Virus record (IMG/VR): IMGVR_UViG_3300043499_000086
Coordinates: 1 to 52,791 of that record
Length of the DNA: 52,791 nucleotides
Source: a virus
Taxonomy: Duplodnaviria > Caudoviricetes
Direction: 5' to 3' (one strand)
Part shown: positions 307 through 52,010 of the stretch, one piece after another
How positions within the stretch are numbered: position 1 is the stretch's first letter
How the letters are laid out: every line of letters begins with the position of its first letter
Notes under the pieces: generated by a model
Database searches by the model: none
What the model was told of the DNA's origin: nothing
What the model saw: only the letters and a program-made list of their open reading frames with translations
Made by a program: the position numbers and the translations under genes

Positions 307-737
307 CCGCCGTCCGTCGCACGCAGGGTGACAAGCCTGTCACCCTGCGTGGGGTCAAGCGGCCCGCGTTCCCCGTCACGGTGCGGCGGGTGCCCGTCGT
401 GCCCTCGCCCGTCATGGTCACGGTGCCCGTCGCCCTCCTGCGCAAGTCCGCCGCGTGGCGGCGTGGCCTGCCCAACGAGTGGCGGGACCTGCCCGCGCCC
501 ACGCTGCACATCGCCCACGCCCATGCGGGCGGGGAGTGGGAGCGCGTCACCCGCGAGGGCGACACGCTCATCGTGCACAACCAGCCGGTCTGGTTCTGGG
601 CACGGCCCAAGCAGGGTGACAGGTCTGTCACCCGTCGCCCGCTCAAGCCGCAGTCGGGCCGCGCCATCGTGCGCGACAACCTGCTGATCCTGCGTCGCCA
701 GGGTCCGTGGTTCGCACCCAAGGCACAGGCCCGGTGA
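303..737 (+). CDS. hypothetical basic protein carrying two palindrome copies
   Basis: ATG at 303 coupled to the upstream stop; 144 aa. Confidence 0.6.
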   Translation: MTAVRRTQGDKPVTLRGVKRPAFPVTVRRVPVVPSPVMVTVPVALLRKSAAWRRGLPNEWRDLPAPTLHIAHAHAGGEWERVTREGDTLIVHNQPVWFWARPKQGDRSVTRRPLKPQSGRAIVRDNLLILRRQGPWFAPKAQAR

Positions 738-875
738 CCCCTGCCCGCCGTGTGCACCGTCGCCCGCCCCATCCCGCCTGTCGGTGGGATGGGGCGCGTG
801 GCGGGACCGGTGCCCGCTCGTGGTCCCGCCGCGCCCTGTGGCGTCATGCGTGGGCCACCCGTGCGCAAGGCTAAG

Positions 876-904
876 TTGTGCACACGGTGTGGTTCTGGCA
901 TACT
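876..904 (+). promoter_or_regulatory. SigA/HrdB-like early promoter
   Basis: TTGTGC-17 bp-CATACT, with TGG before the -10; spacer begins with the palindrome CACACGGTGTG. Confidence 0.7.
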
Positions 905-962
905 CCGTTGTGTTGGGTGACAACCATGTCACCCAACACCCGTCCCATGAAAGGGGGCCATC

Positions 963-1118
963 ATGTCCATGTCCACCGATCCCTTCGCTATCGACAGCGA
1001 GCGGTTCAACGCGCTGCTCGCGTCGATAGCGGACTGCACTGACGACTGCACCTGCGTCACCTGCACGTTCATCGACCTCATCCCCGTCGTCCTCGACGCG
1101 GAAGGGGTCGAGCCGTGA
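963..1118 (+). CDS. small Cys-rich acidic protein (51 aa)
   Basis: Translated by hand (MSMSTDPFAID...CTDDCTCVTC...); GAAAGGGG RBS; downstream of the 876 promoter. Confidence 0.6.
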   Translation: MSMSTDPFAIDSERFNALLASIADCTDDCTCVTCTFIDLIPVVLDAEGVEP

Positions 1119-1557
1119 CCGCGGCCCGCAAGCGCGGGGTCCCCAACCCCGCGCTTGCTGCTGGCCTGCGGGAGTTGCGCCAGGGGTCAAGGGCGCAGCC
1201 TCACCGTGACCGCACCCGCTACACCCGCAAGGGCAAGGCAGGGCGGTGGGCCGGGTGTCAAACCTGTCACCCGGCCCCGTGTCGTTCGACCCTGGCCCGG
1301 CCATCTACCTCGACCGGTCGGCCCCGGCCATCATCGTGCTCACGGTCCTCCTGTGGGCGTGCGTGCAGTACGGGATGCACCTCGCCCGTGCGTGGCGACG
1401 GATGCGCGACGACGACCTATGACGGCGCGGACCGGACGCGGCCCTCGCCGCCGCGACGGTCAATGAAAACGCACCCTGCCCACACCCAGCGGTCATTGAA
1501 GATGAGGGTGACAAGCATGTCACCCAACAAACCCACCACAGAGAGGCACCACCCAAC

Positions 1558-2100
1558 ATGGACCCCAACGAGGCCCACAAGGAACTGGCCCGGCTCGCCG
1601 CCCAGGTCATGAGCAATGACAGTCCACTCGACCCGCAGGAGCAGATGGAGTTCGCTGCTCACTTCCAGGCGCTTGACGACTGGATCAAGAGCGGTGGCTT
1701 CCCGCCCCACGCCTGGACCACCCGCAAGACCTACGTCGTCGCGGTCTCCGCGGACCCGGAACTGGCGGACCACCTGAGCAACTACGGCCAGGGTGACAAG
1801 CCTGTCACCGGGGGCATGGACATCGCCTACTGCCTCCGCCTCGCGGAGCGCATCGCCAGTGACCAGGGCTCGGGCATCGTGACCGTCCAGTACGCCGAGT
1901 TGTATAACGCGGTCGAGTTCCTCGACCGCCTCAAGGGCTACGAGTGGACCGTCGAACTGCACCCGGCCTACGACCAGATCGTGGCCGAGTTGGCGGTGCG
2001 TGACCACGCCGCTGCGCTCGACCACCCGCAGCACCGCAAGCCGGAGCGCCCCGACCTGGCGGGCAACTGGTTCGACCACGTCGAGCAGGGCGGTGCGTGA
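1558..2100 (+). CDS. hypothetical protein
   Basis: 180-aa ORF preceded by the palindrome and CCACCACAGAGAGG. Confidence 0.75.
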   Translation: MDPNEAHKELARLAAQVMSNDSPLDPQEQMEFAAHFQALDDWIKSGGFPPHAWTTRKTYVVAVSADPELADHLSNYGQGDKPVTGGMDIAYCLRLAERIASDQGSGIVTVQYAELYNAVEFLDRLKGYEWTVELHPAYDQIVAELAVRDHAAALDHPQHRKPERPDLAGNWFDHVEQGGA

Positions 2101-2276
2101 TGGACAACATCACCTTCGCCCACGTCATCCGCGCAGCCTCCGAGTTGGTGTCCGACGAGGGCGAGAACGAGGAGTACGACCGCGCCATTGTCGAACTCAC
2201 CTGCGATCTGCTGTCCATCAGCACCGAGTCCAGGGACGCCGTGCTCCCGTTCCTGCGGGCGCTGCGACCGCACTGA
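2100..2276 (+). CDS. hypothetical protein (58 aa)
   Basis: Translated by hand (MDNITFAHVIR...); TGATG coupling to the upstream gene. Confidence 0.6.
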   Translation: MDNITFAHVIRAASELVSDEGENEEYDRAIVELTCDLLSISTESRDAVLPFLRALRPH

Positions 2277-2361
2277 GCGGTCAATCAACTTCCCCGGTTC
2301 CAGCCGGGGCAGCAGGGTGACAAACATGTCACCCGGTGAACCACCACAGAGAGGGACAACC

Positions 2362-2721
2362 ATGTCCGATAGCACCACCACCATCACCGAGCGGGCAGCC
2401 GAGATGGGCAGGGAGCGCGGCAAGACCGCGGCGTCCTGGGCCTTCGACGGGAACACCGAGATGTCCCTGTACCGACAGGTCGTGGAGATGTACGAGACCG
2501 GCGACCCGGCCTTGCACGACCTCATCCCGTCCCCGTCCTGGCTGAGCGGGGAGCACTCCGACTCACCCACCCCGGACACCCTCCGGGCTGTCCTCGAAGT
2601 CCCTGACGGCGAGTGGGACATGGTCGCGGACGAGGTCTGCACGGCCTACGAGGAGGCGGCCGACGAGGCGTTCACCCTCGACGTGTGGACTACGGCGCAG
2701 GCCCACGTCAAGGGCGAGTGA
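2362..2721 (+). CDS. hypothetical acidic protein
   Basis: ATG after the palindrome and CCACCACAGAGAGGG. Confidence 0.7.
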   Translation: MSDSTTTITERAAEMGRERGKTAASWAFDGNTEMSLYRQVVEMYETGDPALHDLIPSPSWLSGEHSDSPTPDTLRAVLEVPDGEWDMVADEVCTAYEEAADEAFTLDVWTTAQAHVKGE

Positions 2722-2987
2722 CCCCGCTCGAACCCCTCGACCCCGGCGTGTCGTGGCAGATCAACCGGGACCGGGAGGTGTCCCGCCGTCACGTCCGTCG
2801 CCTGCTCGCCAGACACCGGCCGCAGGACGCGGTCATTGAACGCAGCCTCATCCAGGATGCGCCCCCGCAAGATGCAGACCCACCCCCTGAGGCAAGCAAG
2901 AAGCCCAGGGGGTGGGCCTGGGTGACAAGCATGTCACCCAGGATCAGGACATGGGTCCGACCGAAGTAACTGCGGTGCCGCAGTTTC

Positions 2988-3011
2988 CAACTGCGGCATT
3001 TGCCGCAGTTG
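2988..3011. repeat. Second palindrome CAACTGCGGCA-N2-TGCCGCAGTT(G); copies at 2988, 19764, 39416
   Basis: Read directly; partial copies at 2968-2985 and 3010-3018 flank the first copy. Confidence 0.85.
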
Positions 3012-3045
3012 CCGCAGTACCCACTACCACTGGAAATGTGCTGAC

Positions 3046-3074
3046 TTGTGCACACGGTGTGGTTGTGGTAGTAT
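3046..3074 (+). promoter_or_regulatory. SigA/HrdB-like early promoter
   Basis: TTGTGC-17 bp-TAGTAT, TGG before the -10, same CACACGGTGTG spacer as at 876. Confidence 0.75.
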
Positions 3075-3160
3075 GTATTCATCAGTCAGAGAACCGTCTC
3101 AAGGCTGAACCACCACCGAGGGTGACAACCATGTCACCCTCACCCCGAGAGGAAACGAGC

Positions 3161-3877
3161 ATGACCAGCACCACCGTCGCCAAGGCGACCAGCACCCCCA
3201 AGGCCCCCGTCAAGCGGGCCGCCACCAAGCAGGTCACCCCGCTGACCTACAACCCCGGCAAGGTCGCCCGTCCGGCGTCCACCGGGGACGAGCGCAAGCG
3301 GGAGGCGCAGGACGCCGTGCCCCCGTCGATGGAGGGCGGCAACGCCACCCTCATCAACGCCTTCCTGGAGCCGCGCTTCCTGTGGTTCTTCGAGGCCGAG
3401 TTCCAGGGCGAGCACATCGTCTGGGGCGCGACCCACGACCGCACCCTCGGTGACCCGAAGACCGTCTCCGAGGCGGTCCAGCGGGCCACCCACACGGGCC
3501 GCGGTGCGAGCACCGCGCTCGCCAAGCGGGACCTCATGGCCGGGATGGTGGCGGCGGACCGCCAACTCCAGACCGCGTTCAAGAAGCCGCCCGTCCCCCG
3601 CAAGACGGCCACGTCCAAGGGCGCGGCCTCGCAGGTCAAGCCCGGCGAGGGCACCAAGGCCACCAAGCCGCCCACCAAGGCGGAGGCCAAGCGGGCGGAG
3701 AAGGCCCAGGCCACGGCCGAGGCCAACCCCGTGGGCAAGGCGGACGTGGACGCGGAGATCGCGGCCACCATCGCGGAACTCAAGGGCGAGACCCCCGTGG
3801 TCGAGACCCCGAAGCCGAAGCCCCCGCGCAAGCAGGCGGCCAAGGCCACCCAGACCGAGGCCCCGGCCGCGGTCTGA
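3161..3877 (+). CDS. Lys/Ala/Pro/Thr-rich protein with histone-like tails
   Basis: GAGAGGA RBS; low-complexity K/A/T/P termini around a globular core. Confidence 0.75.
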   Translation: MTSTTVAKATSTPKAPVKRAATKQVTPLTYNPGKVARPASTGDERKREAQDAVPPSMEGGNATLINAFLEPRFLWFFEAEFQGEHIVWGATHDRTLGDPKTVSEAVQRATHTGRGASTALAKRDLMAGMVAADRQLQTAFKKPPVPRKTATSKGAASQVKPGEGTKATKPPTKAEAKRAEKAQATAEANPVGKADVDAEIAATIAELKGETPVVETPKPKPPRKQAAKATQTEAPAAV

Positions 3878-3948
3878 CCCAACCCACGAAAGGCGGGGTG
3901 ACAACCATGTCACCCCGCCTTTCGGCGTCTCTCGACAGGAGCAGAGAA

Positions 3949-4176
3949 ATGCAGAAGCGCACCGAGGATCGGTACCGCCAGTACGAGACCAACTTCTACG
4001 CAGCGTGCCCGTCGTGCCGCGCCGAGTGGAAGTGGTGCGAGTCCGCCCTCGCCTGGCAGGCGACGCACACCAACGCCTGCCGCTACATCCCGTGGTGGAA
4101 GGCGGAGCAGGTGCGTCGGGAGGCGGAGGCCACCGTCTCCCCTAAGGTGCCCGCGCTGGAAGGGGCAGCCGCATGA
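3949..4176 (+). CDS. hypothetical protein, CxxC...H/C possible zinc binding
   Basis: ORF with AGGAG RBS. Confidence 0.6.
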   Translation: MQKRTEDRYRQYETNFYAACPSCRAEWKWCESALAWQATHTNACRYIPWWKAEQVRREAEATVSPKVPALEGAAA

Positions 4177-4418
4177 CCCGCTGGATGGCGGTGCCCTTCA
4201 TCGCCGGGCACTTCGACCAGGCCCCCGACGCCATCCTCGAAGGCGACCACAAGACCGAGGCCGGGCGCGTGAACTACATCAAGAGCCACGGCAAGCCGGG
4301 CGTGGAGTATGCGGTCGCGCTGCTCTGGCCCACCGGGCAAGGCTGGGTTCCAGCCCCCACCGTCACAGTCCCATCTCCCACCACCACCCAGGGTGACAAA
4401 CCTGTCACCCGGAAATGA
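4173..4418 (+). CDS. hypothetical protein
   Basis: ATGA overlap with the upstream ORF. Confidence 0.6.
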   Translation: MTRWMAVPFIAGHFDQAPDAILEGDHKTEAGRVNYIKSHGKPGVEYAVALLWPTGQGWVPAPTVTVPSPTTTQGDKPVTRK

Positions 4419-4427
4419 GAGGAAGTC

Positions 4428-5015
4428 ATGAGCACCACACACCCCACCAGCCTGCGGACCCACGCGGACTGGGTTGCCTGGATCAAGAAGGGGCGCAGCG
4501 GATGCGACCGCCCCATCGGCAGCAACAGCCGAGCCCGCATCGACGGTGCGGGCGACGTGGCGTTGCGCTACTACGACACCGACGTTGTCATCTACGGCGC
4601 GGACGGCACGCTGACCATCGCCCACGAGGGCTGGGTCACGGCGCGCACCTTCCAGTTCATCGACCGCTTCGCCCCCGGCCGCCACTTCCGCAGCAAGGGC
4701 CGCGTGTTCTCCTGGCTGACCAACGGCAAAACCGAGCCGAAGGTGTGGAAGTGCCGCACCTGCAAGGGCGAGGGCCGGGGCCACCGGACCTACCTGTCGG
4801 CCTGGGACTACGAGACCCATGAGCGCATCGACCCGCCCGTGCGGGTCACCGATGAGTGGGAGTGCTACCGGTGCGAGGGCACCGGCCGTGCGGACTACGG
4901 CAGCAAGCCGCTGTACCTGCGCTGGGACCTGCCGTTCATGACGTTCGACCTGAACGACAACGACCCCAAGGCCCTCGTCCCGACCGCCGCTCACACCTGG
5001 GCGGTGGCGGCATGA
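4428..5015 (+). CDS. hypothetical protein with CxxCxGxG zinc-ribbon pair
   Basis: CRTCKGEG and CYRCEGTG motifs; GAGAGGA RBS. Confidence 0.75.
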   Translation: MSTTHPTSLRTHADWVAWIKKGRSGCDRPIGSNSRARIDGAGDVALRYYDTDVVIYGADGTLTIAHEGWVTARTFQFIDRFAPGRHFRSKGRVFSWLTNGKTEPKVWKCRTCKGEGRGHRTYLSAWDYETHERIDPPVRVTDEWECYRCEGTGRADYGSKPLYLRWDLPFMTFDLNDNDPKALVPTAAHTWAVAA

Positions 5016-5314
5016 CCGACGACCAGGGTGACAAGCCTGTCACCCATCCGATGTGGACCGTGGGCGCGCTGCTCTCGAACATGGCCGCCCTCCAGGCCGA
5101 GGACGAGGTCGAGACTGACCTCGTCTCCGTGGTCGTGGACGCGCTGCCCATGTGTGACATCCACAAGTACGACCTCGGGCAGCCGGACGTGCCCGCCACC
5201 TACGACGGCAAGACCAAGCGCGGCCCGTGGGCGTACATGTGCGGCGAGTGCTTCGACGCCAAGGGTGTCGGCCTCGGGACCGGCCTCGGCCAACGGCTGG
5301 AGGTCCGATCATGA
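5012..5314 (+). CDS. phage hypothetical protein (YDGKT..GPWAYMC..CF...G.GLG.G.GQ motif)
   Basis: Motif familiar from other phage small proteins; ATGA coupling. Confidence 0.7.
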   Translation: MTDDQGDKPVTHPMWTVGALLSNMAALQAEDEVETDLVSVVVDALPMCDIHKYDLGQPDVPATYDGKTKRGPWAYMCGECFDAKGVGLGTGLGQRLEVRS

Positions 5315-5538
5315 GGATCACGCTGCCGCTGGAGATGCTCCAGGTCATGATCGAGGGCGCGGAGCAGGTGCAGGGTGCGGCCAACGGCTTCGGTGAGTTG
5401 CTCACCTGCACCATCCGCGTGGCACCAGAGCAGGAGGGCGACCCCGCCCTCCTGCTCTCGTATGCGCGCGACCGTCGTGACTGGACCATCGAGTTCCCGC
5501 TGAACGAGAACGTGGGTGACAAGAATGTCACCCCGTAA
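5311..5538 (+). CDS. hypothetical protein
   Basis: ATGA coupling within the operon. Confidence 0.55.
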   Translation: MRITLPLEMLQVMIEGAEQVQGAANGFGELLTCTIRVAPEQEGDPALLLSYARDRRDWTIEFPLNENVGDKNVTP

Positions 5539-5569
5539 GACCCGACGAACCGCCCGAGAGAGGAACGCC

Positions 5570-5764
5570 ATGACCACACCCGCCCCCGAACCGACGACCG
5601 TGGTGAAGCGGCACGCGCTTCGCCGGGTCACGTTGCTGCGTGACCTGATGCACGAGTTGCAAGACGAAATCCTGGAGGACCCGGAGCGGCCTGCCCGCGG
5701 GAACCCGTTGCTCGACCAGTTCGAGAACGTCTCGCGGTCCTACCTGGCGGCGGCGTCCCGATGA
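5570..5764 (+). CDS. hypothetical protein
   Basis: GAGAGGA RBS. Confidence 0.55.
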   Translation: MTTPAPEPTTVVKRHALRRVTLLRDLMHELQDEILEDPERPARGNPLLDQFENVSRSYLAAASR

Positions 5765-5943
5765 GCCACGTCGCCGCGGACCCGACCAACCCGGAGTACC
5801 ACATCTGCCCGGAGCGGCGAGGCGCGCACCACCACCTCGCCATCTCCGGCCCGATGCACCACCGCATCCTGCGCTGCGCCCACTGTGGCAAGGCGGAGTC
5901 CACGTTGCGTGCGGAGATCACTCAGAAGGGACGGAAGCGATGA
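5761..5943 (+). CDS. small Cys/His-rich protein
   Basis: ATGA coupling; CxxC. Confidence 0.5.
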   Translation: MSHVAADPTNPEYHICPERRGAHHHLAISGPMHHRILRCAHCGKAESTLRAEITQKGRKR

Positions 5944-6278
5944 GCGCGGTCCGCAGGCTGCGGCCGGTGGTCGCAGCCGAGACGGTGGCCGAGCAACTCC
6001 CGGCCCCCTACCTGGAGTGCCGGGACATGGGCCACCAGTGGGTCCATCGGACGGCGCATTGGGACGGGGCGCTGGCCTGCTACGTCGAGACGGTGGAGTG
6101 CCTGCGCTGCACCGCGGAGCGGGACCGGCACATGGGTCGTGACGGGTACCTCTCGTCCGCGACCCGCAACTCGTACCGCTACCCGGAGGGCTACCTCATC
6201 AGCACGGAGGAGGCGAACCTCATCAACAAGGAAGGGCGGGCCGCGGTCCGTCGTGCCCGGATCAGCAGTTGGCGGTGA
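5940..6278 (+). CDS. hypothetical protein (C..GH.W...CLRC)
   Basis: Coupled ORF; its stop codon is the TGA inside a palindrome copy. Confidence 0.65.
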   Translation: MSAVRRLRPVVAAETVAEQLPAPYLECRDMGHQWVHRTAHWDGALACYVETVECLRCTAERDRHMGRDGYLSSATRNSYRYPEGYLISTEEANLINKEGRAAVRRARISSWR

Positions 6279-6315
6279 CAACCTTGTCACCCTCCCACCA
6301 CAGAGAGGAAGCACC

Positions 6316-6534
6316 GTGAAAAGCACCACCATCCACACCGCGACGCTGACGTTCCAGCACCGCGAGCAGTTCCGGGACACCTACACCGAGGTTGACCGGC
6401 GAGGGGCGTTCTTCCACTACTCGGAGGCGATCTTCGTCAAGGTCCCGCACGGGGTGACGCGAGGCTGGCGCAACAGCCGGAACTGGCCGTTCGGTCGCAA
6501 GATCAAGGTCACCGTGGAGGTGGTCGGGAAGTGA
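6316..6534 (+). CDS. hypothetical protein
   Basis: GTG after CCACCACAGAGAGGA. Confidence 0.6.
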   Translation: MKSTTIHTATLTFQHREQFRDTYTEVDRRGAFFHYSEAIFVKVPHGVTRGWRNSRNWPFGRKIKVTVEVVGK

Positions 6535-6697
6535 AGCGATACCGCCTGACCTACCAGCCCGCCCCCGGTTGGGACGAGATGGTCTGGGAGCGGACTGCCG
6601 AGGAACTGCTGGTGCCTAACGGCGACGTACCGCTGATCGTCTGGATGTACCAGACCGCAGCGGAGCGAGGGCTGCCGATCAAGTTGGAGGAGGTGAC

Positions 6698-7000
6698 ATG
6701 ACTGAGATGTGCGGTGCGATCTACCGGCGAGACCAGGCGCACGTTATCCAATGCACCTTCATCAAGGGGCACGAGTCCAAGTCCAACCACTCGTGGTTCG
6801 CACTACAGATTCAGGACCAGGTAGACGCAGAGGCACGAACGGTCGAGGTGAACCTGCCGATGCAGGTCCCCAAGAGCGTCGTGCCTCTGGTCGAGATCAT
6901 CACCTCAGGTGGGTTGGACGCCCACCTGGAGGTGATTCTGGCGGCGTGCCACGGACGAAAGCGAGCACGGCACGCCACCAGGAGAGGAGAAGGGCGATGA
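6698..7000 (+). CDS. hypothetical protein
   Basis: GGAGG RBS; 100 aa. Confidence 0.55.
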   Translation: MTEMCGAIYRRDQAHVIQCTFIKGHESKSNHSWFALQIQDQVDAEARTVEVNLPMQVPKSVVPLVEIITSGGLDAHLEVILAACHGRKRARHATRRGEGR

Positions 7001-7002
7001 AC

Positions 7003-7692
7003 CTAGACGACGGGGGCGGGCTCGGGATTGCCTCCGGTGTTGGGGTCCTCCGGCTTGCCGAGTCCGGCGTCGGAGGGGAGCCAGGTCCAGGTGGCCTGGT
7101 CGTTGTAGATGACGGCGACCCATTCTCCGTCACCAGTCGGAGCGCCCTCGGGCTCGTCGGGGAGGTTGTACGCCTTGGGGGCAGCGAACTCCGGGAGTCC
7201 CTGTCCGGGGCGGACCGGAGCCCAGGGGAGGTCGTTGTCCGGTCGGTCACCGACGCCGGGGAGACCCTGGTCGGGACGATTGGGACCCCAGGGGAGGTCC
7301 TGGTCGGGGCGTCCATAACCGGGGAGACCCTGGTCCGGGTGCCCGTAGCCGGGGAGACCCTGATCGGGACGACCGCCGCTGCCGGGAAGTCCCTGGTCGG
7401 GGCGTCCACCCCAGCCACCACCGGGGAGGCCCTGGTCCGGGCGTCCACCCGAACCCGGAAGGCCCTGGTCCGGACGGCCATAGCCGGGCAGGCCCTGGTC
7501 CGGTCGGTTCGGGCGACCCGGAAGTCCCTGGTCCGGGTGACCGTAGCCGGGAAGTCCCTGGTCCGGTCGTCCGTAGCCGGGGAGGCCCTGGTCAGGTCGG
7601 CCGCCGATGGGGCGACCGTAGCCGGGGTCAACCGGACCCTGGTCCTCGCCCTCGTCTACCCAGGCGCGGACCGTGACGTAACGAAAACCCAT
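7003..7692 (-). CDS. Gly/Pro-rich repeat protein (13 x PDQGLP-like)
   Basis: ATG at 7692 with GAGAGGA RBS; tandem ~10-12 aa repeats. Confidence 0.8.
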   Translation of the reverse strand: MGFRYVTVRAWVDEGEDQGPVDPGYGRPIGGRPDQGLPGYGRPDQGLPGYGHPDQGLPGRPNRPDQGLPGYGRPDQGLPGSGGRPDQGLPGGGWGGRPDQGLPGSGGRPDQGLPGYGHPDQGLPGYGRPDQDLPWGPNRPDQGLPGVGDRPDNDLPWAPVRPGQGLPEFAAPKAYNLPDEPEGAPTGDGEWVAVIYNDQATWTWLPSDAGLGKPEDPNTGGNPEPAPVV

Positions 7693-7757
7693 GAGCGTTC
7701 CTCTCAATCAGCATGGTTGGTGCAGCCCAGAGTAGCGGCCCGGCCATGCTTGGGGCG

Positions 7758-8145
7758 GTGACCATAGATGACGGAGAAACCATCCAATGGCTCGTCGTCA
7801 TCCTCGTCGTCGCCGCCCTCGGGTGGCAGACCGGACGACTCCTCATTGAAGCCACCGTCCGATTCTTCTGGCGGTTCGGGTACCGGGGTCGTCATCGCCA
7901 TCCGCAGGTGGCCCTTCCTCCTGGCTTGGGCAGCGACGGGCGGCCTTGGCTTCGCGGTTGGCGCATGGGTCAGTTCACTCGACCGCCCTGGCTGGGTGAA
8001 GGTGGTCGCCATCGGCTTCGCAGCGGTCAGCATCGGCACGGCCAGCGCCCGCTTCCGGGCCTGGCTGTTCCGCCGAGAGGTGCGCCGGGTGGTTCGACGG
8101 GCGGCGCGAAAGGCCCGCGAGATGGGTGACAAGGATGTCACCTAG
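7758..8145 (+). pseudogene. membrane protein apparently split by a 1-nt frameshift
   Basis: One hydrophobic helix in one frame and two more in another frame, switching near a G-run at about 7885. Confidence 0.35.
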
Positions 8146-8167
8146 CCGTAGCGCAGGGTGTGCCCTC

Positions 8168-8196
8168 TTGTGCACACGGTGTGCCTATGGTAAGAT
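8168..8196 (+). promoter_or_regulatory. SigA/HrdB-like early promoter
   Basis: TTGTGC-17 bp-TAAGAT, TGG before the -10, CACACGGTGTG spacer. Confidence 0.75.
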
Positions 8197-8287
8197 GTAG
8201 TTATTGGGTTGAGGACTGCCCAGATTCAGCCCACATTCCGGGGTGACAAACGTGTCACCCCGTCCCACCACAGAGAGGAAGATCGGC

Positions 8288-8920
8288 ATGAGCATTGCCG
8301 AGCAGGAAGTAGCGGAGGTCGAGACCGTCCCGGACACCCCGGAGGTCGAGACCGTGGACCTGCATGTACTGGTGGCGGAGATCATCGCCACCAACGAGCG
8401 GGCCGCGGAGGCGGAGGCCGTGCTGGAGGCGGAGAGGACCACCGTCCGGGCCTGGTATCACACGTTCGTCAAGGACTCGTGGGAGTACGCGGACCAGGCG
8501 CAGCACTGTCCCACCTGGGAGACGTGCGCCCGTGAGGCGGGCATCCCCGGACGCCCCGCCAACCGGGAGGTGCAGGTGCGGGGCAGCGTCATCACCCCGT
8601 TCACGGTCAGCAACATCATCCGCAAGATGGGGGTGAGCGAGGCGATGGCCGAGGCCATGTACGCCGGGCTGTCCGAGGACCAGCGGGTCACCACCGCCAA
8701 CCACACCTGGAACCTGACGGTCACCCGGAAGGACATCGTCCCCCCGGACTGGGACCCGCTGGACAAAAAGTCCTTCAAGGCCGGGTGCATCTGCCCGGCC
8801 GGACGCGAGGCGTTCATCGCCTACGCGAAGCGCAACTACGGCCAGGACGTGCAACTGGCTGACATCAGTGTCGTGAACGGCTGCTCGGCCACGACCCATA
8901 TCCCGCAGGAGGAGAAGTGA
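8288..8920 (+). CDS. hypothetical protein
   Basis: Follows promoter, palindrome and CCACCACAGAGAGGA. Confidence 0.75.
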   Translation: MSIAEQEVAEVETVPDTPEVETVDLHVLVAEIIATNERAAEAEAVLEAERTTVRAWYHTFVKDSWEYADQAQHCPTWETCAREAGIPGRPANREVQVRGSVITPFTVSNIIRKMGVSEAMAEAMYAGLSEDQRVTTANHTWNLTVTRKDIVPPDWDPLDKKSFKAGCICPAGREAFIAYAKRNYGQDVQLADISVVNGCSATTHIPQEEK

Positions 8921-10128
8921 GTAGGACAGCAACGGTGGGTGACAGGCTTGTCACCCCCGGTGACCTCGTCACCAGGAGCCGTCGAGTCGGAGTGATCCTG
9001 GAGGTCAGCGACGGCAAGTACACCGTCCTCTCGGCCAAGGGCACCGAGGTCTGGAAGCCCGAGGACTGCCGCAGGGGCGGCAACCCGGCGACCGGCGTGA
9101 CCTACGCGGTGCGGGCGCTGGAGGTGGTCAAGGATCGGGAGTCCAAGGCGGTCACCGACCTGGAGGTCCTGCGCCGCATGGACTCCCAGCAGCGGGCGCT
9201 CATCACCCGAGTCGCCCACAGCCAGGGCACCGCCCACGGGCTCGACTCCCGACTGGACGACATGCTCGCCCGGAACGGACTGGAGCGCAGGCCGGTGCCG
9301 ATGCACCGCTGGGTGGCGATACACGCCCGGCACATCTACGACGGCACCACCCCAGCAACCTCGGTGGGTGCGGTCATGGGTACCGACGTGTACCAGACGT
9401 TCGGCCGGGTGCCGCAGCGGATCGTGGCGGACCGGATCAGGATGATCCAGATGCCAACCGAGACGCTGCCCTTCCGCAGCGTGGACGAGTGCACCTGTGA
9501 GTCGGAGTGCCCGCCCATCGAGGCGGTGCAGGCTCAGTGGGAGAACACGGCTCGCCTCGGTGCGGGGTGGCGGACCGAGATTCTCGGTCTCCGCATGGCG
9601 TTCACCACGGAGTCCCGGTCTGGTAACGGCTGCCGTCACCAGACCGCGCTCAGCGCCGTCGCCACCTGGGAGGAGGCGTTCCCGGACGCGACCCCGTTCC
9701 CGGTCCCGCTGACCGACCACTCCCTGGAGGCGTTCCTGCCGGGGGACACGGTGCGGATCACCCGCTCCGGCCACGAGATGCAGGTGGGCTGGGAGTTCAC
9801 GGTGGAGAGCGTCCGTACTGACGGTCGCCTGGTCGGCCGCTCGGACGAACACACCCGGTTCGCCCACTACGTCATCCGTCAAGCGAACTGCGTGCGGGTC
9901 AACATCCGGGTCGGGGACCGAGTGCAGGTGGTCCACAGTCACAGCGGGCTAGCGGTGGGTGAGACCTTCACCGTCACCGCCGAGACCCAGAGCGGGCGCA
10001 CGCTGATGTACGAGTGCACCAACGTCACCGGTATGCCCGGCTGGCTCGTCCAGCGGCAGTACGTCGAGAGGGTGACAAACCTGTCACCCACACCACCGGC
10101 TCCCGTCGCGGACGACGAGCCCTTCTAG
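8917..10128 (+). CDS. hypothetical protein with SH3/KOW-like 'GDxVxV' modules
   Basis: 403 aa; GTGA coupling; palindrome copies near both ends. Confidence 0.7.
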   Translation: MSRTATVGDRLVTPGDLVTRSRRVGVILEVSDGKYTVLSAKGTEVWKPEDCRRGGNPATGVTYAVRALEVVKDRESKAVTDLEVLRRMDSQQRALITRVAHSQGTAHGLDSRLDDMLARNGLERRPVPMHRWVAIHARHIYDGTTPATSVGAVMGTDVYQTFGRVPQRIVADRIRMIQMPTETLPFRSVDECTCESECPPIEAVQAQWENTARLGAGWRTEILGLRMAFTTESRSGNGCRHQTALSAVATWEEAFPDATPFPVPLTDHSLEAFLPGDTVRITRSGHEMQVGWEFTVESVRTDGRLVGRSDEHTRFAHYVIRQANCVRVNIRVGDRVQVVHSHSGLAVGETFTVTAETQSGRTLMYECTNVTGMPGWLVQRQYVERVTNLSPTPPAPVADDEPF

Positions 10129-43510: not shown

Positions 43511-43816
43511 CTACTCCTCGTCCTTGTTGGCGGACTTCACCTTGGCGACGACCTCGGCCGGAGCATTGAAGCCACCCCGGTCGTAGTTCACGGTCACCAC
43601 CCGCTGGTCCAGACCTGCTTCCTCGGCGGCTGCCAGGAGCAGTACGGCGTTGTCCTCGTTGATCCCGGCGTAGAAGGTCTCGCCCTCCTCGGCCGGAGCC
43701 GCCTCGCTGTCCTCGGAGGTGACAGGCTTGTCACCCTCCTTGACCTCAGCGGTCTCGGCGTCCACGACCTCGTCATCGCTCTCGGGCAGGTAGCCCTCGT
43801 CGTTGTCGGTTGCCAT
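43511..43816 (-). CDS. acidic hypothetical protein
   Basis: GAGGAGG RBS; A.LLLAAAEE.G...V motif; between capsid and tail genes. Confidence 0.7.
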   Translation of the reverse strand: MATDNDEGYLPESDDEVVDAETAEVKEGDKPVTSEDSEAAPAEEGETFYAGINEDNAVLLLAAAEEAGLDQRVVTVNYDRGGFNAPAEVVAKVKSANKDEE

Positions 43817-45517: not shown

Positions 45518-45779
45518 GTCGGTATCTCCTGACAGAGCAAGCGGACGGGGAGGTTGAACTGACACTCCGCGCTTGGCGCTGGGAGAACTCGCTACGGCTG
45601 GGCCGCGGGCGACATCTGTTCGGAGAGTAGAGCAGGGCCGTTGCTCTTGGCAACGGCCCCGCTGTTTGCTCTCCCACAGGCGTCCGGTCCCATGTCCCGG
45701 TTCTCTGCCGCTATATCGCGTGCTGGGTGCGTACTTTGCCGTGGTGTGACGAGCAGGGTGACAAGTCTGTCACCCACCA

Positions 45780-48502: not shown

Positions 48503-50262
48503 GACGCCGCGGCGAGGAAGGTCCGCATCTTCTCGTAGTCGTGCTCGCCCTGGGTCACCAGCAGGCTGCGGGTGTACGAGTCGAGCGCGTTCTTGACCCG
48601 CTCCTGGTCGCAGGTGAACCGGTGCATTGCCTGAGGCAGACAACTCCAGGCGTCCTCCATGAAGCGGTCGATGTCGCCGTTGCGCACCGGGATGTACCGG
48701 TACACGTCGGCGGCGGTGACGCCGGGTGGGCGGACCCCGTAGACGGAGCGCATCTTGTTGCCCGCGCGTTCAAGCGCACGGAAGACGAGGACCTCCGACG
48801 CCGCCGCCAGGTCTGGGGCTACGTCCCGGCCGGTCTCGGACTCCTCCGGGTTGGGCATGTCGCGGGCCGGGTGCTCGTCCAGCGAGCGGTCCGGCCGGGC
48901 CTCGCGGGACACCTCGCCGGTCACGCCGAGGTCCACGCCCAGCAGGCGCAGCGCAGCGCCGACCTGCTCCGGGGTGGCCGAGCCTCCGGCCACCTTGCGC
49001 ACCAGCCAGGTCTTGTACTCCTCGGTGGTCGGGGCGTCGTCCTCGTCAAAGCCGGTCTCCCGGCGCAGCGCCTCACCGTCCAACTCGCCCCGGTCGTACA
49101 ACTCCAGGGCCTCCTTGCTGCGGTCCGGCCGCAACCGCATCTGGGCGGTGTTGGCGACGATGCGCCACATGTCCGAGTCGGTCGCGTTGCGGATGTACTT
49201 GACCGTGATCGCGTTGGTGACGATGCCCAGCAGCGGCTCGATGTGCGCCTTGATCGCGCTCTCATCAATCAGCCAGCCCGACCAGTGGTTCACGTCGCCC
49301 TGGCCGAGCATGATCTCTGGCGGTATCTCCATGCCGAGGGCCAGTCGGCGGATCGCCTCGGTGCGCAGTTCGACGGCGTGCTCGTCCAGTGGCGACCAGA
49401 AGGTCGTGTGGTTCATCTTCCCGATCAACTCGTCGGGCGATGTCACGACGATGGGGACGATGGAGGCGGGCGAGGACGGGTCCTTGATCGGGCGGATCAT
49501 CGCGTCCCCGAGCATCTGCATGAACTGGTCGGCGGTGGCGAGCCCTTCCGTTCCGGGGACCACCGGGAACGTCATGCCCTGCGCCAGTTCGAGGATGCCT
49601 GCACCCGCGAGGCGGGACTGCACCTGGGCGAAGATGTGCCGGGTCAGGTACTCGATCTCGCTCAGGATCGGCAGGACTGAGCGGACCGGTGAGTCGGCCA
49701 GCAGGTGGTTGCGCGGGTGTGGTCGCCAGACCCGGATGACGACGGCGTCGTCCAACTCCCGCCGCTGCCCGTTCTCCTCTTTGAGCGACCACTTCACGTT
49801 CTCGCCGCTGCCGGTGTGGTCAACCTCGGTGACCCCGTAGACGCCCCACTCGTCGCCCGTGGACTCCTCCAGGCCGATGAGGTAACACTCCCCGGCGATG
49901 GTCAGGTGGATGCCGAACGCCTTGAGGATCGCCTCCTCCGAGGAGTCCTGGGCGGTGAGTAGACCGAGCGCATCAACGGCCGGACCGATGGTGACGACCT
50001 TCGGGCCGTTCGGTAGCAGCGTGCCGTTCGGCCCCTGTACCTGCTCCACCTCGAAGCGGGCTCGGGACAGGATGTTGCCGACGTAGTTGGCGATGTACCG
50101 CAGTTCTCCGATGATGTCGTAGAAGCGCCACGCCTCAGCCTGCCAACCGCTCGATCCGGCATTGACCGGAAGGCGTTGCGCCTGATCGGGATAGCGCGCG
50201 GCGGACGCGGTGACGACAGTGGGAGCGGCTTGGACTACGGCCCGACCAGACATGCGCGGCAT
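48499..50262 (-). CDS. portal protein
   Basis: WQ.EAW..YD..GEL...R.WRPHP...ADSP...NHW..W; synteny. Confidence 0.88.
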   Translation of the reverse strand: MPRMSGRAVVQAAPTVVTASAARYPDQAQRLPVNAGSSGWQAEAWRFYDIIGELRYIANYVGNILSRARFEVEQVQGPNGTLLPNGPKVVTIGPAVDALGLLTAQDSSEEAILKAFGIHLTIAGECYLIGLEESTGDEWGVYGVTEVDHTGSGENVKWSLKEENGQRRELDDAVVIRVWRPHPRNHLLADSPVRSVLPILSEIEYLTRHIFAQVQSRLAGAGILELAQGMTFPVVPGTEGLATADQFMQMLGDAMIRPIKDPSSPASIVPIVVTSPDELIGKMNHTTFWSPLDEHAVELRTEAIRRLALGMEIPPEIMLGQGDVNHWSGWLIDESAIKAHIEPLLGIVTNAITVKYIRNATDSDMWRIVANTAQMRLRPDRSKEALELYDRGELDGEALRRETGFDEDDAPTTEEYKTWLVRKVAGGSATPEQVGAALRLLGVDLGVTGEVSREARPDRSLDEHPARDMPNPEESETGRDVAPDLAAASEVLVFRALERAGNKMRSVYGVRPPGVTAADVYRYIPVRNGDIDRFMEDAWSCLPQAMHRFTCDQERVKNALDSYTRSLLVTQGEHDYEKMRTFLAAAS

Positions 50263-50310
50263 CGAACGGCACTCCTCTTGACCGGTGGCTGCTCGTCAGT
50301 GTGACAGCCA

Positions 50311-50658
50311 CTACTCCTCAGGGCCACCGTCCTCGTCATGGAACACGACCCACGATGTCGCGTAGGACAGCGCCATCCAGCCGTTGAAGGCCCACCAGGT
50401 CCAGTGCAGGTTGGACAGTACCGCCCAGACCATCAGGACCAGGGTGATCCACGGACCGAAGCACCACGGACAGTGGGCCAACTTGCTCCACGGCCCGTCG
50501 TGGGTCACCTTGTCCCACCACATCCGCAGCCGGATCGAGGGCGGGTAGTCCTCCGCGACGACGACGCGGGTGAGGCGTCCGGCCGAGAGGACGAGGGTGA
50601 TCGCGGCCAGGGTCAGGTAGAAGTAGGTGTTCAGGTCGGGCGGGGCCAGGAGGGTCAC
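50311..50658 (-). CDS. DUF1360-like membrane protein
   Basis: RLTR.V..D......R...L..CPWC...W; GTGA coupling to the terminase stop. Confidence 0.75.
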   Translation of the reverse strand: MTLLAPPDLNTYFYLTLAAITLVLSAGRLTRVVVAEDYPPSIRLRMWWDKVTHDGPWSKLAHCPWCFGPWITLVLMVWAVLSNLHWTWWAFNGWMALSYATSWVVFHDEDGGPEE

Positions 50659-52010
50659 AGCCGCCAGCCCAGGCTGTCCGGAGTGGCTATCTCGGACGGT
50701 CCATGTGCGCCGGACAGGTGGGTCAGCGCGTGCACCAGCGCATCGACGCGGTCCGGGGATGAGTCGCCTACGACCCACGTCGTCATCTGGTCCTCCAACT
50801 CGTTGAGCACTCCGACGTGATGCACCCTGCCCTGCTCATAGAGGGCCACGATGGGGTCTGCGCGCAGCGCCTTCCCGCGCCGAGAGGTGACCTCGGTGAT
50901 CGGCAGGAACGGGCGCACGGACTCCAGGGTCGTGCGCACCATGTCGCCACCGTAGTTCTTCTCGATGACTACCTTGTCGGCCTCGTACACGTCGAACGCG
51001 CCGACCGTCCGGGTCGCCCAGCCCTGCGGGGTGTAACGGCCGGACCGGTCCTCCATGACGTAGTAGTCGCCGTCCTCGCCCTTGCCCGCGACGATGATGC
51101 CGGTCTCGTCGGAGCGCCGGGTGGCGGTACCTGCGGGGTCAACGGCGACGACGACCCGAGCCAGGGGTGACAAGTCTGTCACCCGGTTCAGGTCGATCAT
51201 CTCGGCGCTCCACATCGCGCCCTCGACATCTTCGAGGAGTTCGCCCAGCAACTCCTGGCGTCCCTTGCGAGTCCCCTCGTACCGGGCCAGGACGGTGCGC
51301 CGCCAGGACGGGGCCAGGTTCTCCAGGTTGGCGTAGGTGGTGGTGACGACGCTGACGGTGGTCGGGTCGCGGACCAGGTCGCGCATCCACTTGCTCGGCT
51401 TCGGCGTGGTGGTGGCACAGATGCGCGGGTGTTGACCGAGCCGCAGTCCGAGGACCAGGTTGTCCCACACTGGCTCGATGAGGTCGGTGTGAGCGGGCTC
51501 ATCGACCCAGGCGTCGTAGTGCTCGGGGCCTCGGAGGCGGTCCGGCTCCTCGCCGGAGTACACGGAACCTATGCAGCCGTTGGGCCAGGTGACCTTACGC
51601 TTGGAGGGCTCCCATTGGGGCAGACCTCCGGGCGGGGCGGTCGCCAGCAGGCCGGACTCGCCTTCGAGCATGATGTCGCGGGCGTCCGGTCCGGTGGGAG
51701 CGACCAGGGCTATCCGTGGGCTGACCTTGGTGCGGCGGTGGGTCCACTCGCTGCCGGTCCGCGTCTTGCCGGACCCTCGGCCGCCGCGCAGCAGCCAGGT
51801 GAGCCAGTCACCGAGCGGCGGGTGCTGGTCGTCGCGGGCGTGCGGCCAGGCCCACTGGTCGTGGGGCCGACCGTCGCAGCCGTGCCGGGTGCAGAAGAAG
51901 GGCCGCCAGGCACCCTCCTGCACCTTGCGCAGCGCCTCAGCCGCCTTCTCCTGGGCGTTCGGGTTCCACCGTTTGTAGGCGTCCGGGTCGAACGCCTCGG
52001 CCGCGCTCAT
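50655..52010 (-). CDS. terminase large subunit
   Basis: Walker A GGRGSGKT, LRGP, WVDE, TTTP, VAVDPA, SPDRVDA. Confidence 0.95.
   Translation of the reverse strand: MSAAEAFDPDAYKRWNPNAQEKAAEALRKVQEGAWRPFFCTRHGCDGRPHDQWAWPHARDDQHPPLGDWLTWLLRGGRGSGKTRTGSEWTHRRTKVSPRIALVAPTGPDARDIMLEGESGLLATAPPGGLPQWEPSKRKVTWPNGCIGSVYSGEEPDRLRGPEHYDAWVDEPAHTDLIEPVWDNLVLGLRLGQHPRICATTTPKPSKWMRDLVRDPTTVSVVTTTYANLENLAPSWRRTVLARYEGTRKGRQELLGELLEDVEGAMWSAEMIDLNRVTDLSPLARVVVAVDPAGTATRRSDETGIIVAGKGEDGDYYVMEDRSGRYTPQGWATRTVGAFDVYEADKVVIEKNYGGDMVRTTLESVRPFLPITEVTSRRGKALRADPIVALYEQGRVHHVGVLNELEDQMTTWVVGDSSPDRVDALVHALTHLSGAHGPSEIATPDSLGWRL

Follow-up and report, generated by a model that had tools for sequence, protein, structure and literature searches.

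A 20-bp palindrome repeated with invariant arms throughout the genome of an uncultivated soil actinophage-like virus

The virus record IMGVR_UViG_3300043499_000086 of IMG/VR (Duplodnaviria; Caudoviricetes), which we analyzed over its whole length of 52,791 bp and refer to as the window, contains 40 dispersed copies of a single palindrome. Read on the sense strand, the element is 5'-GGGTGACA-ARCN-TGTCACCC-3', 20 bp in length with two 8-bp arms around a 4-bp spacer. The sites are kept by very strong purifying selection: among relatives the arms stay the same in sequence, whereas the spacers diverge no more slowly than the flanks. Our tentative reading is that the palindrome is the site of a phage-encoded dimeric DNA-binding protein that would act on transcribed DNA, and that some copies have been elaborated into RNA stem-loops.

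About 51 genes are called on the plus strand (1 to 24,024) and about 26 on the minus strand (24,021 to 52,724), so that two arms converge; we refer to them as the early arm and the late (structural) arm. Genes are numbered from g1. Ranges give the whole 20-bp element, whereas a site named by a single number is named by the first base of its core, two bases further in.

Copy number and sequence of the palindrome

A search of the window for GTGACA-N4-TGTCAC (GTGACANNNNTGTCAC) returned 39 exact matches, the first at 328 and the last ending at 51182, where 0.01 are expected (mean of 100 dinucleotide shuffles; the largest count was 1). When the 20-mer GGGTGACANNNNTGTCACCC was used and up to three mismatches were allowed, 40 matches were found, 29 of them perfect and 11 with one mismatch. 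Ten of the 11 mismatches sit in the outer GG/CC, and only the copy at 1253-1272 (GGGTGTCA) carries one in the core; the same scan found no weaker or degenerate copies in the window. The single mismatches occur on either arm (five left and six right in the sense orientation) and are uncompensated, as independent half-sites would give. The GTGAC cores of the two half-sites are 11 bp apart center to center, about one helical turn.

Shuffling of synonymous codons, a comparison set beforehand, gave a mean of 0.24 and a maximum of 2 intragenic cores in 200 shuffles, compared with 17 cores observed fully inside called genes. An earlier reading made from the letters of the window alone (the sequence-only reading) had described about 40 copies with an almost invariant core and an exact 4-bp spacer, and had proposed shuffled sequence, codon-preserving shuffles and related phages as the tests of selection on them. 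The 39 exact copies and the one with a core mismatch agree with that description, as do the shuffles and the relatives described next.

Conservation among relatives and occurrence in other contigs

A metagenome scan for two sites 258-288 bp apart gave early-arm relatives, namely L306, L276, L293, L314 and small fragments; the L276 sequence compared is 8 kb of a 40-kb contig. Relatives of the structural arm were the IMG/VR fragments L044, L057, L068, L078, L010, L031 and L112. Outside the motif, identity between the relatives and the window is 83-99%. Orthologous sites were compared 57 times, site by relative; the comparisons are not independent of one another, because the relatives are themselves related. 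In 56 of them, the 12 core arm bases showed no difference in 672 positions. The exception is site 38971, which is not kept in L044. Over all 57 comparisons, the spacer differed at 57 of 228 positions (25%) and the 20-nt flanks at 421 of 2280 (18.5%). Two further sites (8126 and 42474) are missing in one relative each.

The same data bear on a selfish or recombinational origin, in which a REP/MITE-like palindrome was spread by a hairpin-specific enzyme, or micro-homology boxes serve the shuffling of modules, without a function for the phage. Such an origin would suit the "digital" character of the copies, none of which is degenerate, and the situation in L306, where an extra 94-amino-acid open reading frame (ORF; L306 10229-10513) stands exactly at site 12269 (12267-12286). 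The left border of this ORF is GGAGTGA and the right border GGGTGA, each with G(A/G)GTGA, which would suit a gain or loss through recombination inside the left arm; three of the four indels of at least 200 bp likewise abut a site. However, orthologous sites are positionally stable in relatives that are 83-91% identical outside the motif, and indels of at least 8 bp show no enrichment near sites, with 5 of 23 (P = 0.18) and 4 of 10 (P = 0.47) lying within 10 nt. The copy in the terminase gene (TerL) came about by substitution without change in length, no transposase or HUH enzyme was detected among the proteins of the window and of L314 that were scanned with Pfam and PHROGs, and the regular spacing and leader association described below argue for a function. 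We consider this origin very improbable.

More distant contigs contain the half-site in other arrangements. The 5.6-kb contig L120, whose TerL is 75% identical to that of the window, has no N4 site; it harbors two exact copies of GTGACACGTGTCAC (2178-2191 and 4573-4586), the same half-site with a 2-bp spacer, one of them intergenic upstream of the portal gene and the other at a gene start. A 20-mer scan of viral contigs matched at least 115 loci, mostly in unrelated phages (34-74% G+C) with one to four clustered copies of GGGTGACA(C)..(G)TGTCACCC; among those matches listed, nine loci are of this lineage, all of them short structural-arm fragments. The clusters in unrelated phages (L009, L011, L053, L045, L116, L014, L055 and others) comprise two to four sites at 18-60-bp spacing, and clustered GGGTGACAC..GTGTCACCC sites immediately precede TerL (L009, L053) or adjoin a Toprim/AAA primase-helicase gene (L045). 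Seven small ORFs beside clustered sites in these phages had no match. Some metagenome contigs (L273, L274, L281, L301, L311) contain long regular arrays of the same core. Judged by such arrangements, the half-site looks like part of an apparent protein-binding array elsewhere. No prophage or host was found among at least 120 genome-contig matches to GGGTGACAANNNTGTCACCC, which have one or two sites each and come from every phylum, and the viral contigs yielded no early-arm relative by g25, by the two-site pattern or by alignment of g44.

Placement relative to genes, leaders and promoter-like boxes

As the sequence-only reading had stated, the sites are found genome-wide, at gene junctions and inside genes. 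For 22 of the 39 exact sites, the center falls between -75 and +25 nt relative to a called start, at 17 of the 50 early and 5 of the 26 late starts. The start codon typically begins 17-38 nt past the 3' end of the motif; for the sites in leaders and junctions, the distance to a downstream start codon is 17-55 nt. The early arm contains 27 sites in 24 kb (1 per 0.9 kb), the late arm 12 in 28.8 kb (1 per 2.4 kb).

A leader, CCACCACAGAGAGG, carries a ribosome-binding site and lies a few nucleotides upstream of a start in each of its eight copies with at most two mismatches (0.91 expected). In the window, seven copies can be checked and each directly follows a palindrome, as the eighth (44-57) does in L314; 31 of the 39 palindromes have no leader.

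A further repeat, TTGTGCACACGGTGTG followed by 7 nt and a TANNNT-like hexamer, has three exact copies in the window, all on the plus strand: 876-904 with the hexamer CATACT, 3046-3074 with TAGTAT, and 8168-8196 with TAAGAT (0.73 expected at up to three mismatches). L314 has two exact copies and, on the opposite strand, one with two mismatches. By their sequence, we take these boxes as putative promoters. The palindrome lies 10-45 nt past the hexamer for all three window boxes, and one L314 box is likewise followed; the copy starting at 915 would fall at the very 5' end of a transcript from box 876. The claim that the palindromes sit beside promoters thus holds for three sites in the window, whereas most sites lie inside operons. 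In L314, two exact copies and one degenerate copy are located between a leftward box (10490-10505, minus strand) and a rightward box (11057-11072, plus strand), in DNA that is probably not transcribed.

Two other repeats were seen near boxes. Just upstream of box 3046, the window has a cluster of CTGCGG/CCGCAG inverted and direct repeats (2960-3020), a possible second operator; TGCCGCAGTT occurs five times in the window. In the minus-strand leader of a 288-amino-acid gene of L314 (10440-10475), a different palindrome, GGTTCGG-AATGG-CCGAACC, lies between the leftward box and the start codon. Its arms resemble those of the Cluster O repeat, TGTTCGG/CCGAACA (PMC4351075; this and the other papers cited here are drawn on for part of their text).

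Sixteen of the 39 sites are wholly inside called ORFs, where 13 are read as G-D-x-x-V-T and three as V-T-x-L-S-P, the peptides that the sequence-only reading had named. The genes with an intragenic site that can be named are TerL and those for a MuF-like protein, a PD-(D/E)XK nuclease and an HNH-like protein. Of the gene labels used in that reading, "protease" and "tail fibre" were not confirmed. The third reading frame of the motif gives TGA, and at three sites (6275, 12269, 23598) the upstream gene ends with this TGA; at site 16872 a TGA stop overlaps the first two bases of the motif, and at site 12269 the spacer provides an ATG start.

Spacing of the sites and functions apart from expression

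The gaps between late-arm sites are 1.1-3.6 kb, with a coefficient of variation of 0.35 (P = 0.0008 against random placement), compared with 0.95 for the gene starts of that arm; for the early-arm sites the coefficient is 0.66 (P = 0.02). The TerL site falls in the linker between the ATPase and nuclease domains. Several homologues are equal in length there (for example, RMADVPPLGR), and the site therefore arose by substitution rather than insertion. The linker sites in TerL and g44, taken with the even spacing in the late arm, indicate that sites were placed where they are needed, even inside genes.

Even spacing and sites created inside long genes would also be expected of a DNA function apart from expression, such as compaction or segregation with ParB/parS-like loading, packaging, lagging-strand-template priming, or Chi-like protection of the linear genome against a helicase-nuclease of the host. 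Both arms are transcribed inward from a divergent region seen in L314, so that polarity with transcription is also polarity relative to the genome ends or to an origin in that region. Two or three of the L314 copies lie in this repeat-rich, origin- or end-like region, which also has CGGTCAACCAAC three times; a protein with a ParB-like N-terminal domain adjoins TerL; and the clustered sites of unrelated phages stand at TerL or a primase-helicase gene. A purely structural role would predict neither the 2.7-fold greater density in the early arm nor the way in which the sites track junctions and leaders, however. ParB-like homologues are not enriched among the motif-bearing contigs listed (3 of 115, compared with 3 of 23 terminase-selected loci), Pfam scans recognized no primase or polymerase in the window, and a near-palindrome would be odd for a strand-specific signal of the Chi or primer type. 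We regard these functions as unlikely.

Polarity of the spacer and extended stems

Several observations weigh against a protein that reads the palindrome as duplex DNA, and most of them concern the sense strand. In that orientation, spacer position 1 is A in 30 of the 39 sites, position 2 a purine in 31, position 3 C in 27, and position 4 a base other than G in 37. The spacer, which the sequence-only reading called variable, does drift among relatives but is not free. A at position 1 only is seen in 24 sites and T at position 4 only in 6 (P = 0.0014 against 1:1; P = 0.016 against the intergenic sense-strand A/T background); outside ORFs, a hand tally gives 14 and 2 (P = 0.02). Three spacers (8939, 23598, 42474) are clearly reversed. 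A near-perfect palindrome on duplex DNA has no polarity, yet the spacer is polar.

In addition, at least three extra Watson-Crick pairs extend the stem into the flanks at seven of the 39 sites (0.87 expected), and five to nine pairs do so at five sites (0.09 expected); these flanks differ in sequence from site to site. At site 328, a C>A change is paired with G>T in L276 and L314, and at site 917 T>G is paired with A>C in the same two relatives. One flank pair at site 3898 becomes G.T in L306, that is, G.U in the sense RNA. By sequence, extended stems with compensatory changes are the signature of a folded single strand and not of a protein footprint. The polarity, the extended stems and the coupling to the leader all favor a folded sense strand.

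The remaining points on this side are of other kinds. Only 22 of 76 called gene starts bear a site, so that the system is no general gene switch. All gene coordinates come from our own rough codon-bias caller, and a sigma-70 consensus scan calls none of the promoter-like boxes. No binding protein was identified: Pfam and PHROGs gave no repressor, integrase or known DNA-binding family in the early proteins scanned or in ten L314 proteins. The helix-turn-helix of the candidate discussed below also matches that of Tn3 resolvase only weakly (Z 4.5, rmsd 1.7 over 43 residues; VIA-align).

The folded strand could be an RNA hairpin, GGGUGACA-ARCN-UGUCACCC, whose stem sequence is read by a phage or host RNA-binding protein or endoribonuclease. 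It would punctuate polycistronic mRNAs through processing, protection of 5' or 3' ends, or control of the downstream ribosome-binding site. All copies fold as the expected hairpin (predicted at -6.7 to -13.2 kcal/mol), 22 sites are start-associated, the copy at 915 would head the transcript from box 876, and the ESAS and SAS layout of Cluster K/EF phages is a described parallel (PMC3203893, PMC7302621). On the other hand, it is the stem that is invariant, with no G.U or compensatory change in the 672 arm positions, and the loop that varies. In RNA hairpins the loop is usually the main protein contact. The outer mismatches are mostly non-pairing (C.C, G.G, A.C) with G.U in only 2 of 10, three spacers are reversed, and the L314 copies between divergent promoter-like boxes lie where a transcript is not expected. 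Thirteen copies are deep in ORFs and were made by substitution, and cleavage there would cut essential mRNAs; the one RNA library with the phage consists of contigs, which show no ends. We consider this explanation somewhat unlikely, but a serious rival.

A broader version, which we regard as speculative and quite unlikely, is phage-wide punctuation of the sense strand, in which a phage protein would read the invariant 8-bp stem, at points spaced regularly along the genome, as RNA or as an extruded single-stranded DNA hairpin and then cut, cap or load. This would divide the inward-transcribed arms into units of about 0.9 and 2.4 kb, and could be likened in principle to Cas6 at CRISPR repeats or to tRNA punctuation, here serving the phage's own expression or replication. 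If it were true, a widespread, unnoticed family of readers would be marked by the 2-bp-spacer form of the half-site that L120 and many unrelated phages carry.

Intrinsic terminators were also considered and rejected. A terminator scan over 1-20000 called none of the sites, and their flanks lack T tracts. The only strong terminator found in this range is a canonical one at 18194-18221, a 12-bp stem followed by ATTTTTTT in a 500-bp non-coding gap past g41.

A possible duplex reader acting on transcribed DNA

In spite of these points, we lean, tentatively, toward a symmetric DNA-reading protein. What is invariant is the sequence and not merely the pairing, which points to base-specific recognition. 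The uncompensated mismatches, the one-turn geometry, the copies between divergent promoter-like boxes and the linker sites at even spacing favor the same kind of reader. Stoperators are polar with transcription, as is the spacer here, and the closest described case, the Cluster O repeat, was likewise interpreted as the site of a dimeric binder (PMC4351075).

In this model, the palindromes would be a family of cis-acting sites in an uncultivated soil actinophage-like lineage, maintained by purifying selection and read sequence-specifically, as duplex DNA, by a dimeric protein that the phage itself encodes. The sites would lie mainly in transcribed leaders and intercistronic junctions, downstream of early promoter-like boxes. 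Because they lie there and are denser in the early arm, the protein may act after initiation and not at promoters, as a transcriptional roadblock or temporal shut-off comparable to Cluster A stoperators, and would then hit the early arm hardest. Because the site is palindromic, each transcribed copy would also be an RNA hairpin of 8 bp with a 4-nt loop (-10 to -13 kcal/mol); the subset extended to stems of 11-17 bp would probably form RNA stem-loops that act as attenuators or stabilizers. The DNA and RNA readings are not exclusive, since an operator in a transcribed leader is also a hairpin and evolution can lengthen useful stems. That the sites exist, are invariant and conserved, and have the placement, polarity, extended stems and regular spacing described here is observed; recognition as duplex DNA, a dimeric phage protein as the reader and an effect on transcription are inferred.

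The sequence-only reading had proposed a dimeric protein that coats the whole genome. A dimeric DNA-binding protein is still the single most likely reader, but given the polar spacer and the seven extended hairpins, some with compensatory changes, a role linked to transcription or RNA is at least as likely as passive coating.

Candidate reader proteins

The sequence-only reading had singled out the product of g44 (19226-20074, plus strand; 282 amino acids) as a helix-turn-helix protein. A helix-turn-helix is probable at residues 138-185 or thereabouts, judging by weak fold matches of the predicted structure (pLDDT 68.6, pTM 0.42), the best of them to the helix-turn-helix of LsrR (Z 4.6, rmsd 1.7 over 47 residues; VIA-align). 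Foldseek returned nothing below an E value of 0.1 for this model. Distant homologues of g44 (P0008, P0012) are encoded on contigs of 33 and 57 kb. Nothing in our results ties g44 to the motif.

A second conceivable candidate is g77 (52200-52724, minus strand; 174 amino acids), the protein adjoining TerL, whose ParB-like N-terminal domain matches phrog_620 (E 4e-29); it had no Pfam match, and again no result links it to the motif. Searches of PDB sequences found no match for g44, g77 or g8. An Atlas search gave nothing usable for g8, and the 288-amino-acid first gene of the late operon matched only unnamed viral clusters in it. Among the viral contigs listed, no protein of the window recurs beside clustered sites, so that the binder was not revealed in this way.

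The claim that neither an integrase nor a recognizable repressor is encoded agrees with our scans, in which Pfam and PHROGs detected neither family, and no partition module, in the window proteins scanned or in ten proteins from L314; most of these proteins match nothing, some small ORFs were outside the scan and the window is 84% complete, so that ORFans could hide one.

Comparison with known repeats

The sequence-only reading had called the repeats the best candidate for an undescribed system. This is too strong, since comparable repeats have been described in Cluster O (PMC4351075) and Cluster EG (PMC7302621). In Cluster O mycobacteriophages (Corndog and relatives), 34 copies of TGTTCGG-N3-CCGAACA, a 17-bp repeat (TGTTCGGNNNCCGAACA) with invariant arms and a variable but biased spacer, are distributed genome-wide, more densely at the right end in the non-structural arm, with about one third in ORFs (PMC4351075). 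The same account gives no integrase, no observed lysogeny and the presence of proteins with ParB-like domains; its authors predicted a dimeric DNA-binding protein involved in something other than transcription initiation and left the function of the repeat as unknown (PMC4351075).

The palindrome of the window resembles the Cluster O repeat in having more than 30 copies, invariant arms (here 0 of 672 differences), a short variable spacer, a distribution over both arms that is denser among non-structural genes, and many intragenic copies (here 16 of 39). It differs in sequence and geometry (8+8 arms and N4 compared with 7+7 and N3). In the part of the paper drawn on, the Cluster O authors saw no meaningful orientation and no close link to start codons (PMC4351075), whereas the window adds the 24:6 spacer polarity, 22 start-associated sites, eight leaders and seven extended hairpins. 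Cluster O was compared by its published description. We found no functional follow-up of the Cluster O repeats, no subsequent functional work on dispersed palindromes of lytic actinophages and no paper describing the 20-bp sequence as a phage repeat, in searches that did not extend to subscription journals and supplements.

Cluster EG Microbacterium phages have an 18-bp inverted repeat, GATCAACCNNGGTTGATC (GATCAACC-NN-GGTTGATC), in 8-10 copies at one genome end; these copies lie in short intergenic regions 14-22 bp upstream of starts in the inward-transcribed non-structural arm and are kept while their surroundings diverge (PMC7302621). In the right 12 kb of phage OneinaGillian we counted 5 exact and 10 relaxed copies. 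The two elements are alike as short start-proximal inverted repeats, and the TerL of EG phages is 44% identical to that of the window. They differ in sequence, in the restriction of the EG repeat to 8-10 copies at one end, and in that none is reported in structural genes in the text drawn on. The right half of OneinaGillian (30000-61703) shares with the window only the Rad52-family protein, a nuclease and one tail protein, and no common candidate binder was found between the two.

In Cluster K and EF phages, a conserved ribosome-binding-site motif of unusual invariance (SAS) is located 3-8 bp upstream of the starts of a subset of genes, and about half of the SAS copies are preceded by an inverted repeat (ESAS) of unknown function (PMC3203893, PMC7302621). 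At eight genes of the window, CCACCACAGAGAGG preceded by the palindrome has the same layout. However, ESAS arms are imperfect and 17 bp long, with a spacer of 4-13 bp, and are never intragenic, whereas the palindrome is exact and its spacing is fixed. Nor is the repeat found only with the start motif, given the 31 of 39 palindromes without a leader and the 16 within ORFs.

Stoperators are 13-bp asymmetric sites for the monomeric repressor of temperate phages. In Cluster A phages (L5/Bxb1), dozens of near-identical stoperators lie mostly in short intergenic spaces of both arms, are oriented with transcription, and are bound by one phage protein that blocks elongation (PMC4351075). The sites in the window share the orientation with transcription, more weakly than true stoperators since only the spacer is asymmetric; they differ in being palindromic, in the 16 copies within ORFs, and in that no repressor or integrase was recognizable among the proteins scanned. 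The conserved inverted repeats of phiC31, a temperate phage with a known repressor, are found at many loci of that actinophage and are bound by repressor isoforms. REP/RAYT-type mobile palindromes were rejected as a class for the element, given the TerL copy without a length change and the lack of a detected transposase family in the Pfam and PHROGs scans.

The element is a combination of a Cluster O type of distribution with a start cassette like those of Clusters K, EF and EG, to which polarity and hairpin extension are added.

Individual sites along the two arms

All early-arm copies are given on the plus strand, with the spacer in brackets. Two lie in g2: 326-345 (AGCC), 23 nt into the gene, is read as QGDKPVT and has six extra complementary flank pairs, and 614-633 (GGTC), read as QGDRSVT, adjoins a 27-nt indel in L276 and L314. 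The copy at 915-934 (ACCA), with five extra flank pairs, begins 10 nt past CATACT and is followed after 28 nt by the g3 ATG, and the core-mismatch copy (GGGTGTCA AACC TGTCACCC) stands at the called start of g4. Intergenic copies at 1506-1525 (AGCA) and 2315-2334 (AACA) precede the leaders at 1533-1546 and 2341-2354 and lie 32 nt upstream of the g5 ATG and 27 nt upstream of g7; between them, 1791-1810 (AGCC) is read as QGDKPVT inside g5, a gene with an HNH-like N-terminus. On either side of box 3046 are 2920-2939 (AGCA), intergenic past g7 with three extra flank pairs, and 3120-3139 (ACCA), 21 nt upstream of the g8 ATG. The longest stem, of 17 bp with nine extra flank pairs, belongs to 3896-3915 (ACCA), 18 nt past the g8 stop and 33 nt upstream of g9.

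Further along, 4391-4410 (AACC) lies in the final codons of g10 and 17 nt ahead of the g11 ATG; 5026-5045 (AGCC) is 14 nt into g12; and 5514-5533 (AGAA) lies at the g13 3' end, with g14 starting 36 nt further on. The copy at 6273-6292 (ACCT; outer CGG) holds the TGA stop of g16 and is followed by the leader at 6295-6308, 23 nt upstream of g17. Box 8168 is flanked by 8124-8143 (AGGA; outer CCT), at the 3' end of g21 and absent in L306, and by 8241-8260 (AACG), which precedes the leader at 8265-8278 and lies 27 nt upstream of g22. Gene g23 has a copy at its 5' end, 8937-8956 (GGCT, reversed polarity), and one near its 3' end, 10070-10089 (AACC), read as RVTNLSP. The intergenic copy at 10880-10899 (AACC) has seven extra flank pairs and lies 53 nt upstream of g25. 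At 12267-12286 (AACA; outer GAG), the insertion point of the L306 ORF, the copy holds the g25 TGA stop and the g26 ATG.

The single-stranded DNA-binding protein SSB (g30, 13718-14299, plus strand) is directly followed past its stop by 14300-14319 (AGGT), with the leader at 14332-14345, 34 nt upstream of g31. The copy at 14693-14712 (AAGG) has eight extra flank pairs; the leader follows at 14727-14740, and an in-frame ATG at 14751 lies 38 nt past the copy. The junction of the g37 stop and the g38 start is occupied by 16870-16889 (AGGT; outer GAG), and 18034-18053 (AGTT) is intergenic past g41, 140 nt upstream of the terminator at 18194-18221. Within g44, 19917-19936 (TTCT, reversed) is read as PVTFLSP in a linker that is gapped or different in homologues with 50-56% identity. 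The Rad52-family gene (g45, 20694-21299, plus strand) has 20653-20672 (GATA) 21 nt upstream, and the PD-(D/E)XK nuclease gene (g47, 21462-22550, plus strand) has 22223-22242 (CAGA) inside it. The last early copy, 23596-23615 (GGTT, reversed), holds the TGA stop of g50 and is followed by the leader at 23616-23629, 19 nt upstream of g51.

Late-arm copies are on the minus strand and their spacers are given in the sense orientation. Those between or beside genes are 24956-24975 (AACA), 20 nt upstream of the g53 start; 26866-26885 (AACC), between g56 and g55; 31552-31571 (AACA), between g60 and g59, 20 nt upstream of the g59 start and with three extra flank pairs; 35170-35189 (AACA), intergenic downstream of g63; 37850-37869 (AACC), between g66 and g65 and kept in L044; 42472-42491 (TGTT, reversed), between g68 and g67 and absent in L044; and 45756-45775 (GACT), just downstream of g71 and kept in seven relatives. 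Those inside genes are 28608-28627 (ACTC; g57, GGDNSVT); 38969-38988 (ACCT), in the 1326-amino-acid ORF g66; 43717-43736 (AGCC; g69, EGDKPVT), kept in L044, L031 and L112; 47815-47834 (ACCT; the MuF-like g72), where seven relatives keep the arms and the spacer varies; and 51165-51184 (GACT), read as RVTDLSP in the linker before the nuclease domain of TerL (g75, 50655-52010, minus strand).

Genome context and the record

The window is the whole virus record, classed as linear, estimated as 84% complete and with 64-70% G+C. In the Pfam and PHROGs scans, the early arm consists almost entirely of ORFans; apart from SSB, the Rad52-family protein and the nuclease, only a SLOG-family protein and, by PHROG, the HNH-like N-terminus of g5 had matches. 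The late arm matches comprise an M23 peptidase, an HK97-gp10-like tail component and the MuF-like protein. TerL, recognized by sequence matches, is 51% identical to that of Arthrobacter phage Tank.

In the relative L314, a stretch of about 5.5 kb that is missing from the window (L314 6230-11770) connects the right end of the window with its left end. This stretch contains about 12 small leftward ORFs, the 288-amino-acid first gene, which has no family match, and a divergent region of 740 bp that is rich in repeats; in it are CCAGGGC-type repeats, GC-only runs and the three CGGTCAACCAAC copies as direct repeats. The divergent region is a candidate for an origin or genome end, and with the two ends of the window joined in this way, both arms are transcribed inward from it.

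By comparison with L314, the left end of the window (1-40) breaks inside a further copy of the motif. Where L314 11700-11771 reads GGGTGACAAACCTGTCACCC and then the leader, the window has unrelated bases and then GTGACCCCC, so that this end is chimeric or broken; the palindrome may have caused the assembly to stop. The 1326-amino-acid g66 (37875-41855) has an unusual position between capsid-region and head-tail connector genes, and the tape measure is more likely the 910-amino-acid ORF at 31572-34304. With its low-complexity GETLV/ALVR repeats and weak coding score, the called ORF g20 (6997-7761) is unlikely to be a real gene; contigs from other organisms, both RNA and DNA, also touch 7349-7401 within it.

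The lineage is abundant: DNA nearly identical to the window (positions 1-20000) was found in 23 DNA runs from 20 soil and freshwater-sediment studies dated 2017-2025, eight of these runs being possible sources of the record itself. One soil RNA library (X24) has three 100%-identical contig pieces, in g8 and g23; being assembled contigs without readable ends, and with DNA carry-over possible, they say nothing on transcripts. With the first 20 kb as query, no near-identical entry was found among 50,697 phage records, a set that may omit the record itself or ones near to it.

Significance for dispersed phage repeats

The palindrome is a new variant within the described, unexplained phage repeats, in an uncultivated lineage, and not a new category. 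Dispersed invariant palindromes have been on record in lytic actinophages since 2015 for Cluster O and since 2020 for Cluster EG, with neither their reader nor their function known. This lineage narrows the options through spacer polarity, coupling to a leader, hairpin extension with compensatory change, spacing achieved by recoding of linkers, and copies in apparently untranscribed DNA, and constrains the role of such repeats more clearly than any case before it. As the phage is uncultivated, Corndog or Hyperion are the practical test beds. Finding the reader protein would establish a new way in which phages control or mark their whole genome, and would provide a compact, highly specific pair of protein and site.

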